DNA of 19,514 nt from positions 1-19,514 of the forward strand of contig JAGWDQ010000119.1 of assembly GCA_018260615.1 (NCBI GenBank). The letters run 5' to 3'. Shown here one piece after another: positions 2,412 to 14,066 of this stretch. Both the position numbers and the translations under genes were made by a program. Every line of letters begins with the position of its first letter. Within the stretch, counting starts at the first letter, position 1. The notes under the pieces were generated by a model. It made no database searches, was not told where the DNA came from, and worked only from the letters and a program-made list of their open reading frames with translations. This DNA is from Candidatus Altarchaeum sp. (GTDB lineage: Archaea > Altiarchaeota > Altiarchaeia > Altiarchaeales > Altiarchaeaceae).

Positions 2412-3188
2412 TTAAATTTTCTCCAAATTCACATTCCACGCTCCGATTTTATCCTTAACAATTATGCAAATTCCGTAAATTTCCTTAAATTTCTTTCCGA
2501 GTTCAATAACATCCTTAATGCTCTCTTCATCGTTTTTAACTAAATTTCCAAGTGATGTCGCGAATGCGTCTGCAATTGCCGGACTATTTGCTATAATTGT
2601 TGTCGCATCGCTGTCTCCGAAACTCACAGACAGCCCGACAGAAGACGAAGATGTGCATATACCTAAAATTTTGTCAGGGAATAATTTTGCCGGATTTAAC
2701 GATATAAAAAATTTGTTTGAAAAGGGCGAATTTCCTGCATAAATTTTTACCTTAAAATTCCTGTCTCCGAACAGAGCAATATCTCCTCCGTTTTCGATAA
2801 GCCCGGCATCAAATCCGAATTCAATACACTTCCCGCACAAAATTTCTGATATTGCTCCTGCAACACCTGCCATCGGACCGACATTTGCTGTCTTTGAGGA
2901 ACATACCATCAGTTTAATTATATCGGGTGCATCATTAATTTCAGCATTTTGAAAATCTCCCGAGTGGAACGAAGTGAGCGGAACGAAGTGAGCGGAAGTG
3001 AGGTGATTAATTTCAACCGGTTCAAGAGAATACTTAAACAACAAATTTTTTACTATTTCTTTCTCTATTTTGCTCCTTTCCCCGACAACCACTCTGAAAA
3101 TTTCTCTGAAAATTTCCTCGTCCTCTGTTATTGCATTGTTTTTGTATAAAGATATATTCAGGTTTGTGTTTTTATAGGTTAGATACAT
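2412..3188 (-). CDS. UPF0280 family (ApbE-like) protein carrying a 24-aa in-frame insertion
   Basis: Motifs SLEPV, VGPMAGVAGAISE, IENGGDIAL, GICTSSSSVGLSVSFGDSDATTI and ADAFATSLGN. Confidence 0.9.
   Translation of the reverse strand: MYLTYKNTNLNISLYKNNAITEDEEIFREIFRVVVGERSKIEKEIVKNLLFKYSLEPVEINHLTSAHFVPLTSFHSGDFQNAEINDAPDIIKLMVCSSKTANVGPMAGVAGAISEILCGKCIEFGFDAGLIENGGDIALFGDRNFKVKIYAGNSPFSNKFFISLNPAKLFPDKILGICTSSSSVGLSVSFGDSDATTIIANSPAIADAFATSLGNLVKNDEESIKDVIELGKKFKEIYGICIIVKDKIGAWNVNLEKI
2934..3015 (-). mobile_element. 72-bp in-frame inserted element with a 10-bp flanking direct repeat (MITE/palindromic-element-like)
   Basis: ATTAATTTCA occurs at 2934-2943 and 3006-3015, 72 bp apart. The interior has 2 exact copies of GGAACGAAGTGAGC (2966-2993) and shares sequence blocks with 12573-12605. 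Confidence 0.7.
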
Positions 3189-7546: not shown

Positions 7547-7633
7547 TTTAAAATTTAATAATGCCTTTATAATTAGTATTAATTCCAATTTAATGTGTTT
7601 GGTAAAATTTTGGCAAAAATTTAACTTGATAAA

Positions 7634-8846: not shown

Positions 8847-11432
8847 TTATTCAATCATCCCGATTTCTCCGTCCTTCGGTTCAAAGATTTTTCCCTCTCT
8901 TTTCGCATTTTCAACGAAATTTTTTGCATCCTTTTCGTCAATTCCCTGCTCTATTGCCTGCTTAACAAAGTCCTGTATGAAACAGTGTTTCTTTCCGTTT
9001 TCGGTGAGGTATTCTAAAATTTCCGACAGGTTCTTTATTTTGTCTCTCTTTTCTTTCGGTCCGTAAGATATTCTGTCAACATCTATTTTTCCTGTTTCTT
9101 TATCTCTTGCGATAAGATTCATTGAATATTCCATCAGGCGAATTGCCCTGTTAACATCATCTTCTTCAACAACATTTCTCAGTCGCATTTTTGCACTTGC
9201 ACAACTTATTCGTATTATGCCCTCAAGTTGTCTTGCAGTGATTTGCACCACATCCTTACTGCTTTCTCTTCTTAACTGCAAATAATATTCTTCTATTTTC
9301 TTTTGTGCAACCTCCCCTAACACAGGATTTAAATTTTTTCTCGCATAAGCAATGTACTTTCTTATAAACTCAATATCTATCGGCGGGATAAGTTGTTCCT
9401 CTTTCTTTCCGGAATATGCCATAAGTACATACTTTGCAACCCCCTTGTCTTGTGTACTGTCCATAATATCCCTAAGAGGAAAAATTAAGTCAAATCTAGA
9501 CAACAATGTCGGAGGAATGTTAAACTGGTCAGCTATTGCTTTTTCGCTTGAAAATCTTCCGAATTTCGGATTTGCCGCTGCAAGCACGCATGTTTCCGCT
9601 CTGAATTTTGCAACGATACCTGCCTTCGCGATGGATATGGTTTGCTGCTCTAAGGCCTCATGCATTGCCGCCCTATCTTCATCTTCCATTTTGTCAAATT
9701 CATCAATACAATTATGTACAACAACACTGTCTGTCAGGAAATTATTGTTTCCCGGAACAAATAAGTCATAAACAAACCCTTCATAATGGAACTCGTTGAT
9801 TTCAATGATTTTATTATTCCCCCAATCGGCAACTGCATCTTCTCCTGCGGAAAATTTCTCTGCGGGTTTCCATTCCATTGTGTTGCCATCAAGCAGGAGA
9901 TGGTCAGGTGTTAATTTTATTGAAGAATTATTTTTAAATTTTATCTCCAGCATATTTTCTTTATAAAATTTTCTTCTGATTCTTGTGGCGGTGCTTTCTT
10001 CTACTGAAAGTTCGTCTATATTGTACGAAACAACTGTTAAATTAATCTCTTTAATTTCTTGTATCTCATTAAATTTATCTCGTGCGAGAATATATTCGCC
10101 ATCAAATAGTTCCTCTATTTCTTTTACCTTTCCATTAACTAAAACATTTGTTTTTGGATGTAAGCATGCCAAGCCCCCGGATGCCAATACTAATGCCCCT
10201 GCTTTTAGCACCCACGCACCTTCCGCAAATTCATCTTTCTCTGCGGTAGCAGTCAAGCCGGCTGCACTTGTACCCTTTCCGCTGACATATATACTTTTCG
10301 GTGCAATATTGCTCGCACCAATCAGCAATTTTGACTTTGCAACCCCCGGATCACCGATTAACAACAAATGTGTTTCTCCCCTTGTTTTTGTTTTATCCGG
10401 AAGTTCAAATTTACTCCCTCCGAATAACTGCAATGCCATCACCTCTTTAATTTCTTTATATCCGTATATTGTCGGACTGATAGAACTTACAAATTTTTCA
10501 ACAACATCCGGCGACTTCGCAAATTCCTTTATTTTTTTAATGTCATCTTCCGATAAATCAACCTCTATAAATTCCCTGTCAATGACATTAACATTATTTG
10601 CATCAATAAATTTCCTGTAAACCGCATCATTTATATTTTTCGGAGGAATTAATTTCATCACTCCCGCTACATTTATTATATTTCCCGGCAGTACTTTTCC
10701 GGTTAAATCATCAGTCAGCCATATTTCTATCTTTCTGGCTTCTTCACCACCCCTGAGTACCTCCAGCGGCTCCTGAATCTCTAATCGCTGGATATCCAGA
10801 AATTTACTTTCTTCCGGAAGCAGTTTAAATTTAACTGTTTTTTTGCAGTCGTCACATACGGAAGGAACAACCAAATTTCTGTTTTTTTCCTGATATATCT
10901 CTTTTCTTTTCCCGCATATCGGACACTGAAAAACCCCGACATAAACCTTCGGAAGAACATCACTCACTCTCGTAATAACCCCATCCACGCAAAAAAATTT
11001 ATTTATATATTCGCTTGTTACATCTCGTATATTCACATTAAAGCCCTTAGGCAACATAAACCTGACATGAAATTGGACATCGCCTTCAAAATTTACAGGA
11101 GTATTTTGTTCATTAACCGCTTCTTCAAAAAGTCGTATTACTTTATCCGGGAAGTCAACCAGTTCATCGCATAATTGTGCATTAAATTTAAACAATTCGG
11201 AATAATCAACAAGCAGGGACTTCTTTTTCGGATAGTCCTTTGCAACCTCTAAAAGAGCGTCCTTTTTCAGAGTAATAAATTTCTCTGCTAACGACTTTAT
11301 TTTGTCCTCCGGCATACTTTCTCCGGAATTAGTTATGCTTTCTGCCTCTGCAAAGTTATCCTCTGCAAATTCATCAACAGTATTGCCCGTATTATCCTTA
11401 ATATCCGCATTATTCTTATTTGTCTTGCTCAT
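8847..11432 (-). CDS. mcm: Replicative MCM helicase containing a mini-intein
   Basis: Zn finger CPIC...CDDC, Walker A GDPGVAKS, SGKGTSAAGLTA, Walker B CIDEFDKM, EALEQQTISIAKAG, AAANP and arginine finger LLSRFDL. Likely start ATG 11432 (ORF track TTG 11438). Confidence 0.97.
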   Translation of the reverse strand: MSKTNKNNADIKDNTGNTVDEFAEDNFAEAESITNSGESMPEDKIKSLAEKFITLKKDALLEVAKDYPKKKSLLVDYSELFKFNAQLCDELVDFPDKVIRLFEEAVNEQNTPVNFEGDVQFHVRFMLPKGFNVNIRDVTSEYINKFFCVDGVITRVSDVLPKVYVGVFQCPICGKRKEIYQEKNRNLVVPSVCDDCKKTVKFKLLPEESKFLDIQRLEIQEPLEVLRGGEEARKIEIWLTDDLTGKVLPGNIINVAGVMKLIPPKNINDAVYRKFIDANNVNVIDREFIEVDLSEDDIKKIKEFAKSPDVVEKFVSSISPTIYGYKEIKEVMALQLFGGSKFELPDKTKTRGETHLLLIGDPGVAKSKLLIGASNIAPKSIYVSGKGTSAAGLTATAEKDEFAEGAWVLKAGALVLASGGLACLHPKTNVLVNGKVKEIEELFDGEYILARDKFNEIQEIKEINLTVVSYNIDELSVEESTATRIRRKFYKENMLEIKFKNNSSIKLTPDHLLLDGNTMEWKPAEKFSAGEDAVADWGNNKIIEINEFHYEGFVYDLFVPGNNNFLTDSVVVHNCIDEFDKMEDEDRAAMHEALEQQTISIAKAGIVAKFRAETCVLAAANPKFGRFSSEKAIADQFNIPPTLLSRFDLIFPLRDIMDSTQDKGVAKYVLMAYSGKKEEQLIPPIDIEFIRKYIAYARKNLNPVLGEVAQKKIEEYYLQLRRESSKDVVQITARQLEGIIRISCASAKMRLRNVVEEDDVNRAIRLMEYSMNLIARDKETGKIDVDRISYGPKEKRDKIKNLSEILEYLTENGKKHCFIQDFVKQAIEQGIDEKDAKNFVENAKREGKIFEPKDGEIGMIE
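9711..10166 (-). mobile_element. 152-aa mini-intein (no homing endonuclease) immediately before MCM Walker B
   Basis: ...LASGGLA | CLHPKTNV ... KLTPDHLL (block B TxxH) ... VYDLFV ... VVVHN | CIDEFDKM. Removing it restores the contiguous GGLACIDEFDKM. Confidence 0.95.
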
Positions 11433-11438
11433 TATCAA

Positions 11439-11579: not shown

Positions 11580-14066
11580 ATGACAAAAGAACAAAAATTT
11601 TATAAAGCATTACAGGATGTCTTTATCGGCGCTAAGATTGAAGGCAAAGGCGGATTTATCAATCTGATGCGAATAAAATCAGGATATTATTCCCAGATAG
11701 AAAGACAGCTTCAAAAAGATATAGATAACGCATTAGAAAAGCATCCGGCTTTCAGGAACGAACTTTTTGACAAATTATACTCTTTTTTTAGCAGATATTT
11801 TACGGAAAACGGCTCAATTTATTTCAATTCAACGCCATTTCATAACAACATCTACGAAAAGGTTTATACCGATGAAAAAGATGTCATTCTCTTCTGGAAA
11901 ACGCAGATGCTTTACTATGTCAAAACAGACAGGATTTTCAGGACTGTGCCTGTTGAATTTGACGGATTAAATTTTTATTTTGATGCCTCAAAGATAGAAA
12001 ACAAAAAAGCCAATGAAAAACGCAATATTATTTTTGAATTTTACAAATTGCAGGAAGACGGGACGATTATTTTTTCTGTTGCTTATTCTGAAAAGGGCAG
12101 AATAACGAAACAAGACGAAATATTGAAGGCACTGAAACAAAAAGGAATTATAATAACCGGAGAGCAATTGGAAAAAGCTTTTAAGGTATTTGAAAAACAA
12201 AGTGAAGTGGATTTTTTCATCAACAAAAATGCCAAAGCGTTTTTGCAGGAACAGTTTAAACTTTGGAGCTATCAGTATTTCTGGGACGGGGCAAAGGACT
12301 GGGGTGCGGATAGAGTTAATCAACTGCAAACCTTAAAGGATATTGCTTTCAAAGTTATTGATTTTATCAGCCAGTTTGAAGACGAACTGGTAAAAATCTG
12401 GAATAAGCCAAAATTTGTAAGAAACTCAAATTATGTGATTACTTTGGACAGGATAAAAGACAAAAAGCTGATTGAAAAAATACTCAAAGCGGATGGAGTA
12501 AAATCGCAGATTAAAGAATGGCAGGGCTTGGGAATTATAGATGAAAACTTTAAAGTAAAAGATGTTTTTGAAAATCACCTCACTTCGTTCGGAGATTTTT
12601 CAAATCTCTGCGATTTGAAAAATGGTTTAGAAGGCGAATATTTGAACAAAAAATACGAGCATTTGCCAATTGATACCATATATTTTAAGGACTTAGAAAT
12701 AGAAATTTTGTCTTTGTTTGACAACCTTGACGAATCACTTGATGGCTGGTTGATAAAAAGCGAAAACTATCAGGCATTAAATACAATCCTGCCAAAATTT
12801 AAAGAAAAGGTGCAGACAATTTATATTGATCCGCCGTTTAATACGGGGGAAGATTTTCCTTATGTAGATAGGTTTCAAGATTCAAGCTGGCTGAGTTTGA
12901 TGGAAAATAGAATAAGAATAGCAAAACAATTTTTGTATAAAATAGGAAGTTATTATTTACATTTAGATTCAAATGCGGATTATTATGGAAAAATTTTGTT
13001 AGACAATGTATTTGGAGAAGATAATTTTAGGACAAAAATTACTTGGAAAAGACATACAGGTCCTAAAATACAATCTTTGCATTTTCCCAATATTTCCGAT
13101 TTTATTTTAGTTTACTCAAATAATGAAGGAAAGTGGATATATAATCCTCAATATTTACCATATAAAAAAGAATACTTAGAAAAAATGTATAGATATAAAG
13201 ATAAGAAAGGGACATATAGGATACACGATTTATATGCTCCGGGCGAAGGCCCAGCAAGATTATTTAATGGCAATAAAATTGAACCACCAAAAAGACATCA
13301 CTGGAGTTATACTCAAGATAAAATAGACGAAATGATTAAAGAAGGTGTGATATTTTTTGATAATCGGGGATTTCCAAAATTGAAAGTATATTTGGGAAAA
13401 GGAGAACAAGCAACTAATATTTGGACAGATATAAATGTAATTCAAGGAAGTTCCACTGAGTTCTCAAATTTTCAGACACAAAAACCCGAAAGATTATTAG
13501 CAAGAATATTAGAAGCATCTACTATCAAAGGTAGTTTAATTTTAGACTTCTTCCTCGGCTCTGGCACAACAACCGCAGTGGCGCATAAACTCGGCAGGCG
13601 ATGGCTCGGCGTGGAGATGGGAGAACATTTTTATACCGTAGTTTTACCAAGAATGAAAAAGGTCTTGGCTTATGATAAATCCGGCATCTCAAAGGATGTA
13701 AAAGAATATAAAGGTGGTGGCTTCTTCAAATACTACGAAATTGAACAATACGAAGAAGCGCTGGCAAACTGCAAATATTCTGATGGTAATATATTCACAA
13801 AACCAACCGCATCTTCGTATCAGGAATATGTTTTTATGAAAGATGAGAAAATGCTTTCTGTGTTGGAAATTGATTACAAGAAAAACAAAGTGGAAGTAGA
13901 TTTATCAAAACTCTACTCTGACATTGATATTGCCGAAACTTTATCTAATTTAACTGGCAAATGGATAAAGAGAATTTCAGATGACAAAGTAGAATTTACC
14001 GACGGGACAAAAATAAATACAAATGACTTGGATTACAAACTCATTAAGTCCTTAATCTGGTGGTAA
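11580..14066 (+). CDS. mod: Type III restriction-modification DNA methyltransferase (Mod, beta class)
   Basis: 828 aa. Motif IV IYIDPPFNTG (DPPF at 12828) precedes motif I ILDFFLGSGTT (about 13545), with TQKPERLL in between. The stop is 1 nt upstream of the res ATG. Confidence 0.93.
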   Translation: MTKEQKFYKALQDVFIGAKIEGKGGFINLMRIKSGYYSQIERQLQKDIDNALEKHPAFRNELFDKLYSFFSRYFTENGSIYFNSTPFHNNIYEKVYTDEKDVILFWKTQMLYYVKTDRIFRTVPVEFDGLNFYFDASKIENKKANEKRNIIFEFYKLQEDGTIIFSVAYSEKGRITKQDEILKALKQKGIIITGEQLEKAFKVFEKQSEVDFFINKNAKAFLQEQFKLWSYQYFWDGAKDWGADRVNQLQTLKDIAFKVIDFISQFEDELVKIWNKPKFVRNSNYVITLDRIKDKKLIEKILKADGVKSQIKEWQGLGIIDENFKVKDVFENHLTSFGDFSNLCDLKNGLEGEYLNKKYEHLPIDTIYFKDLEIEILSLFDNLDESLDGWLIKSENYQALNTILPKFKEKVQTIYIDPPFNTGEDFPYVDRFQDSSWLSLMENRIRIAKQFLYKIGSYYLHLDSNADYYGKILLDNVFGEDNFRTKITWKRHTGPKIQSLHFPNISDFILVYSNNEGKWIYNPQYLPYKKEYLEKMYRYKDKKGTYRIHDLYAPGEGPARLFNGNKIEPPKRHHWSYTQDKIDEMIKEGVIFFDNRGFPKLKVYLGKGEQATNIWTDINVIQGSSTEFSNFQTQKPERLLARILEASTIKGSLILDFFLGSGTTTAVAHKLGRRWLGVEMGEHFYTVVLPRMKKVLAYDKSGISKDVKEYKGGGFFKYYEIEQYEEALANCKYSDGNIFTKPTASSYQEYVFMKDEKMLSVLEIDYKKNKVEVDLSKLYSDIDIAETLSNLTGKWIKRISDDKVEFTDGTKINTNDLDYKLIKSLIWW
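12576..12623 (+). mobile_element. 48-bp in-frame inserted element with a 12-bp perfect hairpin (same family as 2934-3015)
   Basis: CACCTCACTTCGTTCGGAGATTTTTCAAATCTCTGCGATTTGAAAAAT. Stem ATTTTTCAAATC (12595-12606) pairs with GATTTGAAAAAT (12612-12623). Encodes HLTSFGDFSNLCDLKN. Confidence 0.65.

Follow-up and report, generated by a model that had tools for sequence, protein, structure and literature searches.

The palindromic elements of Rickettsia (RPE) are short, lineage-specific repeats that occur both between genes and in frame within conserved genes; the host protein tolerates them, and copies persist only if their frame is open (Ogata et al. 2000, as summarised in PMC2229807 and PMC10969869). 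Each RPE is a single element of 105-146 bp with terminal inverted repeats of approximately 12 bp, a CGTC tag (PMC3733652) and a conserved peptide. The REP/BIME repeats of Proteobacteria, which go together with RAYT transposases, are very short hairpins present in more than 100 copies; they form mosaics, are mostly extragenic, create no target duplication and are occasionally found inside genes, especially replication and repair genes (PMC2817692, PMC3733652). ERIC and the 107-bp Correia/NEMIS repeats are also mobile, and their open frames have been fused into bacterial ORFs (PMC2229807). According to a published MITE census, the highest MITE density among archaea is that of Ca. Altiarchaeum hamiconexum (PMC11602168).

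The window analysed here is a whole stretch of 19,514 nucleotides on contig C119 of an Altiarchaeum genome (2.23 Mb, 148 contigs, 33% GC, 87% complete; G000 below), and the insert in its UPF0280 gene belongs to a family of short repeat units. Like RPE, these units are lineage-specific and lie both in intergenic DNA and in frame in conserved genes, namely, those for UPF0280, a DNA methylase, TnpB, RadC, PolD DP2, a FAD protein and an NYN protein, with the position in a loop seen for UPF0280 alone. On the other hand, they are archaeal, measure only 39-50 bp, consist of two unrelated hairpins, nest within each other and have neither terminal inverted repeats nor the tag. With this different size and architecture, and with a motif confined to Altiarchaeum, they do not belong to the RPE sequence family.

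With REP/BIME, the units share short hairpins, more than 100 copies, mosaics, a mostly extragenic location and the lack of target duplication. However, none of 180 units has the GTAG or CGTC tag, a search for a Y1/RAYT gene in G000 (87% complete) was negative, there is no downstream-of-gene or strand preference, and the loop rather than the stem foot is conserved. Similarly, mini-elements of IS200/IS605 (PATE type) resemble the units in their hairpins at both ends, their precise duplication-free insertion and their preference for single-stranded or hairpin targets, and TnpB genes are present in the genome. They differ in that no TnpA (Y1) was found in G000, the target has only a T after the insertion point in place of a conserved tetranucleotide, the ends of the TnpB IS do not contain the core motif, and the units are far shorter than known PATEs. 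The MJRE of M. jannaschii are alike by description only, as archaeal palindromic repeats inside coding regions. ERIC and Correia/NEMIS differ as MITEs, which have terminal inverted repeats and TA or other target duplications. In the Altiarchaeum units, the two ends are unrelated (T-N-A/C-N-C followed by CTCAC... at one end and the ...AAAA hairpin arm at the other); no target-site duplication of fixed length accompanies them in at least 15 filled/empty pairs, the repeat at UPF0280 being the exception; and six TnpB IS copies of ~1.34 kb, the only IS family examined, contain no matching core except in one secondary insertion. In general, the units work like RPE and in-gene REP and are modular like BIME, yet they have neither the terminal inverted repeats and target duplication of MITE nor the tag of REP, and no RAYT, TnpA or conserved target of the IS200/IS605 type was found for them.

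The UPF0280 gene and its 72-bp insert

The host gene was assigned to the UPF0280 family by models and conserved residues. Its ORF scores 183 bits against NCBIfam NF003321, which is below the equivalog cut-off of that model (262); homologues of the protein belong to PF27030, and those in Candidatus Altiarchaeum bear the name UPF0280 family protein. PDB 2O34 matches the protein with an E value of 7e-16 in an alignment that begins at residue 86. In an alignment of 59 sequences that includes the window protein, 24 columns are invariant. Three strains have an intact ORF, and the synonymous:nonsynonymous codon differences between them (7:4, 8:9 and 10:9) are compatible with moderate purifying selection.

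The initial annotation had described one parasitic element of 72 bp in this gene, bordered by a 10-bp target-site-like duplication. The sequence features on which it relied were found again: the 10-mer ATTAATTTCA is present at 2934-2943 and 3006-3015, with an exact spacing of 72 bp (24 codons); the 14-mer GGAACGAAGTGAGC is exact at 2966 and 2980 and is followed by a truncated copy; and the 62-bp interior has a GC content of 52%, compared to 37% for the gene. With up to 2 mismatches, GGAACGAAGTGAGC has three matches in the window, the third at 12578, and 0 of 200 shuffles reach three. At the insert, which comprises residues 62-85, the UPF0280 protein reads ...LEPVEIN-HLTSAHFVPLTSFHSGDFQNAEIN-DAPDII.... 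The coordinates of the features are listed in Table 1.

Table 1. Features of the window, by position, and in-frame units elsewhere in G000, by contig.
Feature	Position	Strand	Details
UPF0280 / ApbE-like host gene	2412..3188	(-)	258 aa; based on ORF, NCBIfam, PDB and AF2
Downstream 12-nt copy (AEIN)	2934..2945	(-)	contains 10-mer 2934-2943
Repeat-composite remnant	2947..3006	(-)	alignment with 102- and 150-bp alleles, unit definition
Pair of exact 14-nt units, both loop-bearing G-module halves	2966..2993	(+)	
Upstream 12-nt copy (VEIN)	3006..3017	(-)	contains 10-mer 3006-3015
DNA methylase (N6/N4), host of second copy	11580..14066	(+)	PF01555 at residues 411-686
Intact 48-bp unit in methylase	12575..12622	(+)	G stem-loop and perfect hairpin with 12-bp stem
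Unit in TnpB	C42		48 bp; five empty paralogues
Unit in RadC	C44		42 bp
Unit in PolD large subunit DP2	C78		42 bp; absent from three orthologues
Unit in FAD-dependent protein	C98		48 bp
Units in NYN-domain protein	C124		6 x 48 bp, perfect tandem
Unit in 211-aa ORF	C2		42 bp
Unit at C-terminal end of 731-aa ORF	C148		

In the AlphaFold2 model of the protein (59-sequence alignment, mean pLDDT 87.8), the sole segment with pLDDT below 50 comprises residues 64-84, a coil between helices 50-53 and 89-101, and the loop at this site varies in length among orthologues. Where a surface loop had been anticipated, the model shows a disordered loop. Most likely, translation of the 24 codons gives a disordered loop that is probably exposed at the surface and has no function of its own. 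We infer translation from the open frames only, and the insert is presumably neutral; selection would only remove variants with a frameshift or a stop.

The repeat units and their insertion into empty sites

The motif extends beyond the two copies in the window. Its 11-mer core, with up to 1 mismatch, has 268 matches in the 2.23-Mb genome (about 250-270), and an exact 24-mer has 22 copies there. In the four Altiarchaeum species, a 15-mer with up to 1 mismatch gave 139, 26, 102 and 58 matches; in each of 37 further genomes from the class it gave 0-1, on a par with the reversed control. When 185,579 species genomes were searched for an exact 19-mer, 53 stretches matched, of which 40 belong to Altiarchaeum/Altiarchaeales and 13 are singletons in unrelated taxa. 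Judged by these matches, the family is confined to the genus Altiarchaeum, and the core does not occur elsewhere beyond chance. No paper describing the family was found in a literature search, and it looks undescribed. The earlier suggestion of a possibly undescribed archaeal family of protein-embedded mini-elements therefore stands as to the family, which is large; a specialisation for proteins does not hold, since approximately 85-90% of the copies are intergenic.

The unit was defined from approximately 180 copies. Its length is 39-50 bp, with a mode of 46 bp and with 48, 47, 39, 44 and 42 bp also common. The 5' part, read on the sense strand of the UPF0280 and methylase genes, is a 21-nt G module composed of a 5-nt arm, the loop CTCACTTCGTT and the complementary arm; on the other strand, this loop is the conserved 11-nt GAACGAAGTGA. 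The G module is followed by a perfect AT-rich hairpin, which runs from TTT... to ...AAA. The G stem covaries, with A-T, C-G, T-A and G-C at position 4 in 88, 61, 14 and 8 distinct copies, respectively, and it keeps one mismatch throughout (T.T or A.C).

ORFs, taken as crude longest-ORF calls, cover 84% of the genome yet hold only ~10-15% of the cores. Copies are spread over the intergenic classes in proportion to the available DNA, and their strand relative to the flanking genes is not biased (63 sense and 56 antisense), which speaks for an element at the level of DNA rather than a directional RNA signal. An RNA-level role was rejected on this lack of strand bias. In addition, an Rfam scan of the whole window with E values up to 1 returned nothing at either copy.

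The mode of insertion was examined by joining the 60 nt on either side of a unit and searching the joined flanks against the genome. For at least 15 distinct targets, empty paralogous sites were found that align to the joined flanks without a gap at the junction. What has been inserted is the unit and nothing else, from its first T to its last A; no bases are duplicated, and the junction is ambiguous by 1 nt (T) or by up to 4 nt of an A run. In the TnpB gene on C42, for example, the inserted unit is 48 bp long, and the empty paralogues are located on C13, C24, C69, C70 and the far end of C119; in these five paralogous IS copies, the empty site reads GATGTAAA^TGGTGC. The left flanks have no consensus and often end in A runs, and the first base after the insert is nearly always T. 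Frequent targets are the loops of other modules, e.g., CACT^TCG and CGT^TCGTG inside G loops, and insertion into the G loops of other units consequently gives rise to nested mosaics.

The units insert precisely and without target duplication, often into loops of other units, and they also amplify in tandem; mobilisation would be a single-strand, hairpin-dependent process performed by a trans-acting factor. A search of G000 (87% complete) for PF01797 (Y1/RAYT transposase) yielded no match, with controls positive in 6 of 14 genomes. There are nine TnpB genes in G000, and six of them form the ~1.34-kb IS, whose copies are 88-96% identical. TnpB-only IS copies were located on C13, C24, C69, C70 and C42 and at C119:22316-22531, on the same contig beyond the window.

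Several other copies were recorded in the course of this survey. Perfect tandem arrays are present in G000 at C111:5970-6204 (47 bp x 5) and at C15:4902-5142 (48 bp x 5). At L106:231-278 (C84:2930-2977 in G000), a 48-bp unit interrupts a tRNA-Val-like 5' fragment that precedes an intact tRNA-Val gene; an uninterrupted paralogous tRNA-Val-like fragment exists, and C59 near 2001 was noted together with this locus. That this unit resides within a tRNA gene was rejected, as ARAGORN does not call the interrupted fragment. At approximately 7591-7597 of the window, a related strain (L035:5550-5603) has 48 extra intergenic bases composed of two G-type stem-loops, which is another module-sized strain difference. 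Furthermore, a predicted viral contig (IMG/VR contig UViG_3300046780_000453) contains one complete 23-nt G module with its arms (L052:9962-9984) and a second near-core within more GC-rich flanks; host and virus may have either the repeat or its source in common. Much of the fragmentation of Altiarchaeum assemblies is explained by the units, in which many contigs end.

Nested alleles and the flanking repeat at UPF0280

The gap of 24 residues that the initial annotation had expected in an alignment was observed: orthologues at 68-80% identity, from three other Altiarchaeum species and metagenomes, do not contain the segment, and neither do more distant relatives. By contrast with these, the closest two relatives, P0001 and P0002, which both come from one JGI sample and are 96-97% identical outside the insert, carry inserts of 34 and 50 residues, respectively, at the same site. 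At the DNA level, the alleles, which come from three independent assemblies, are 72, 102 and 150 bp long, measured between the first bases of the two flanking repeats. Their ends are identical, as is the flanking repeat, and all differences are internal indels that keep the frame; an assembly artefact can therefore be dismissed. By comparison of these alleles, the insert is older than the split of the three strains.

With the unit defined, the aligned alleles can be read directly. In the 150-bp allele, U1 (48 bp) is split at CACT^TCG by U2 (42 bp), and U2 is split at CGT^TCGTG by U3 (48 bp); the resulting 138 bp (48+42+48) are followed by TGC and the second repeat copy. Positions 8-92 of this allele match intergenic composites at 95%. 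The difference between the 102-bp and 150-bp alleles is exactly U3, the innermost unit, and thus two co-occurring strains differ by one whole unit. Compared to the 150-bp form, the window allele has lost most of U3 and the right part of U2 including its hairpin, and half of the U1 hairpin is gone as an 18-bp gap between two GATTTTCAAAAT direct repeats. The net change is -78 bp, in frame, and two identical 14-nt left halves are left. The two 14-mers of allele L003, which are parts of U2 and U3, are distinguished by a single base. The 14-nt spacing of cores is also present at 12 intergenic places. The 14-bp periodicity is a by-product of nesting, which the window copy has inherited.

The remnant at 2947..3006 consequently has four parts on the coding strand: the left half of the outer unit U1, the two 14-nt left halves from nested G modules, a short remainder of U3 joined directly to the right end of U1, and a hairpin arm that has collapsed (TTTTCAAAA). 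Folded as single-stranded DNA, the 150-bp allele reaches -26.9 kcal/mol (z -4.5), and the window allele reaches -3.2 kcal/mol (z +2.1), which is worse than 200 of 200 shuffles. The window copy is a remnant without any hairpin and is no longer palindromic. Of the notion of one parasitic element, the true insertion and the membership in a repeat family are kept, whereas the copy itself is a decayed remnant of three nested units. It is likely that the 72 bp consist of 60 bp of decayed selfish repeat and one copy of a 12-nt duplication, located in frame in a variable loop of UPF0280.

As for the course of events, a three-level nest stands in frame in this gene in one strain of the three-strain clade; it may have entered whole, or the innermost unit may have been added later. 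The window strain has undergone a net loss of 60 bp and another of 18 bp, both in frame, by which every hairpin was removed. The history is thus readable from a nested composite, by way of one unit gained or lost between co-occurring strains, to a remnant that codes for a peptide but has no hairpins, and it constitutes an archaeal, strain-resolved case of short repeat DNA entering conserved genes.

The repeat that flanks the insert is 12 nt long when read in frame (GTTGAAATTAAT and GCTGAAATTAAT, 11 of 12 nt identical) and specifies the four codons xEIN. In P0003, P0005 and species G001, a 12-nt tandem xEIN duplication is present at the same site without an element (L049:250-300, L050 and L004/L006), with the variants EINNEIN, EINKEIN and EINNEIY. 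P0008, which belongs to the same lineage, has no duplication, and the gene tree does not resolve the sister relation between the lineage with the element-free duplication and this clade; the xEIN site may be either duplication-prone or a shared ancestral state. In the UPF0280 gene, the base after the unit is a T, within TGC, which is the commonest right flank. Because the units insert without target duplication in at least 15 pairs, the flanking 10-mer probably existed before the insertion and probably is not a target-site duplication, as it had been taken to be. The family being otherwise duplication-free, and an element-free 12-nt duplication being present in a related lineage, we are inclined to prefer a reading in which the four-codon duplication already existed and the element entered it at ...GAAATTAA^TGC... 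without duplicating its target, and we think this reading probable. The perfect identity of the flanking 10-mer counts against it, and neither a near-identical strain with an empty site nor a duplication-only allele was found in homologue searches and two metagenome scans.

In each of the three alleles, the insert is bordered exactly by a perfect direct repeat of 10 bp, which is what a classical MITE would leave, i.e., a non-autonomous cut-and-paste element that was moved by a DDE transposase and produced a 10-bp target-site duplication on entry into the gene, and the very high MITE density that the published census gives for Ca. Altiarchaeum hamiconexum (PMC11602168) is in line with it. Nevertheless, such an origin is unlikely, considering that the longest allele has no terminal inverted repeats (its ends are CACCTCAC... 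and ...CAAAATGC), that the same units made at least 15 other insertions without duplication, that three non-unit bases (TGC) separate the unit end from the downstream repeat, and that the 12-nt duplication occurs without an element in a related lineage. It is also conceivable that no dedicated enzyme is involved and that the units spread by replication errors at hairpins (template switching or slippage, with microhomology to the A-rich 3' arm), in which case the UPF0280 insert and its duplication would be one templated insertion. The methylase target already had TTTGAAAAT, which is near-identical to the terminal hairpin arm of the unit; the TnpB target and the unit end both contain TAAAT; left flanks often end in A runs; perfect 47-48 bp tandem arrays (including the 6 x 48 bp in the NYN gene) and internal deletions between short direct repeats are present; and no Y1 transposase was found in G000 (87% complete). 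These points lend the error-driven route some plausibility, but many insertions are clean, with a target overlap of at most 1 nt, the unit borders are very sharp and do not vary (T...AAAA), and conservation of the loop extends to species with a protein identity of only ~75-80%. With such borders and such a loop, recognition by a protein fits better than error-driven copying, and we regard the latter as rather improbable.

Returning to precise insertion by a trans-acting factor, a bolder reading is that the units are undescribed archaeal mobile DNA, among the smallest known, duplication-free, preferring hairpin loops, self-nesting, still active and moved by an enzyme other than Y1/RAYT, and that their 42- and 48-bp variants supply loops of essential proteins. 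Taken as a whole, this is a tentative proposal, possible but doubtful; its element of continuing activity is drawn from the two co-occurring strains that differ by exactly one 48-bp unit. If it were true, the 42/48-bp variants would be a steady source of new loops in essential proteins, e.g., PolD. In any case, the family is genus-wide, with sharp borders, no target duplication and self-nesting, and its mechanism is directly testable.

In-frame units in other genes

Besides UPF0280, seven or eight other genes carry units in frame. In the methylase, the unit spans residues ~333-348, ahead of the catalytic domain; its orientation and reading frame agree with those of the UPF0280 copy, and precisely these 16 codons are missing from the G001 and G002 orthologues. 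Long ORFs contain 13 units at eight loci, every one of them 42 or 48 bp in length and stop-free, whereas the units outside genes (n=167) are mostly 46 bp long and 39% are multiples of 3; the stop-free fraction is 21-59% depending on the frame. From these two fractions, approximately 1/6 of random insertions keep an ORF open. The in-gene units are thus the outcome of filtering by selection, with no specialisation for coding DNA. The idea that only frame-preserving variants survive, first raised by the size of the UPF0280 insert, agrees with these lengths and with the three UPF0280 alleles, all of which are in frame.

The same frame statistics bear on the question of whether the segment reaches the protein at all. 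Some archaeal mRNAs are spliced, and the segment could be removed at the RNA level (e.g., as an archaeal bulge-helix-bulge intron) or otherwise remain untranslated; nothing direct speaks for it, apart from the one unit found within a tRNA-like fragment. The frame statistics led to the rejection of an intron-like reading, as all in-gene units are stop-free multiples of 3 while 61% of the intergenic units are not multiples of 3, and the three UPF0280 alleles keep the frame. Moreover, the poor folding of the window copy relative to its shuffles and the ARAGORN result for the interrupted tRNA-like fragment both tell against it, and removal or non-translation is hardly credible. Co-option of the insert as a functional or regulatory loop of UPF0280 would be consistent with its retention through the divergence of three strains and with the intact gene. 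It is nonetheless very unlikely, given lengths of 24, 34 and 50 residues among co-occurring strains, a predicted disordered conformation, the same peptide frames in unrelated proteins and the absence of the segment from all other orthologues. A translated, tolerated insert is therefore retained as the preferred reading, and repeats of this kind can make proteins longer without disrupting them. They also account for the differing lengths of orthologous proteins, which annotation pipelines could misread.

Two other interrupted genes were noted. In the RadC gene (C44:38019-39260 of G000), the N-terminal and JAB domains are approximately 225 inserted residues apart, including the one 42-bp unit. 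In the window, the MCM gene (8847-11438, minus strand) contains a mini-intein at 9711-10166 (minus strand), which is 152 aa long, starts with Cys, ends with HN followed by Cys, matches Pfam Intein_splicing with 57.6 bits and interrupts the MCM P-loop domain. This mini-intein is absent from the strain contig L035, which is otherwise 95-96% identical, and it is therefore polymorphic in the population.
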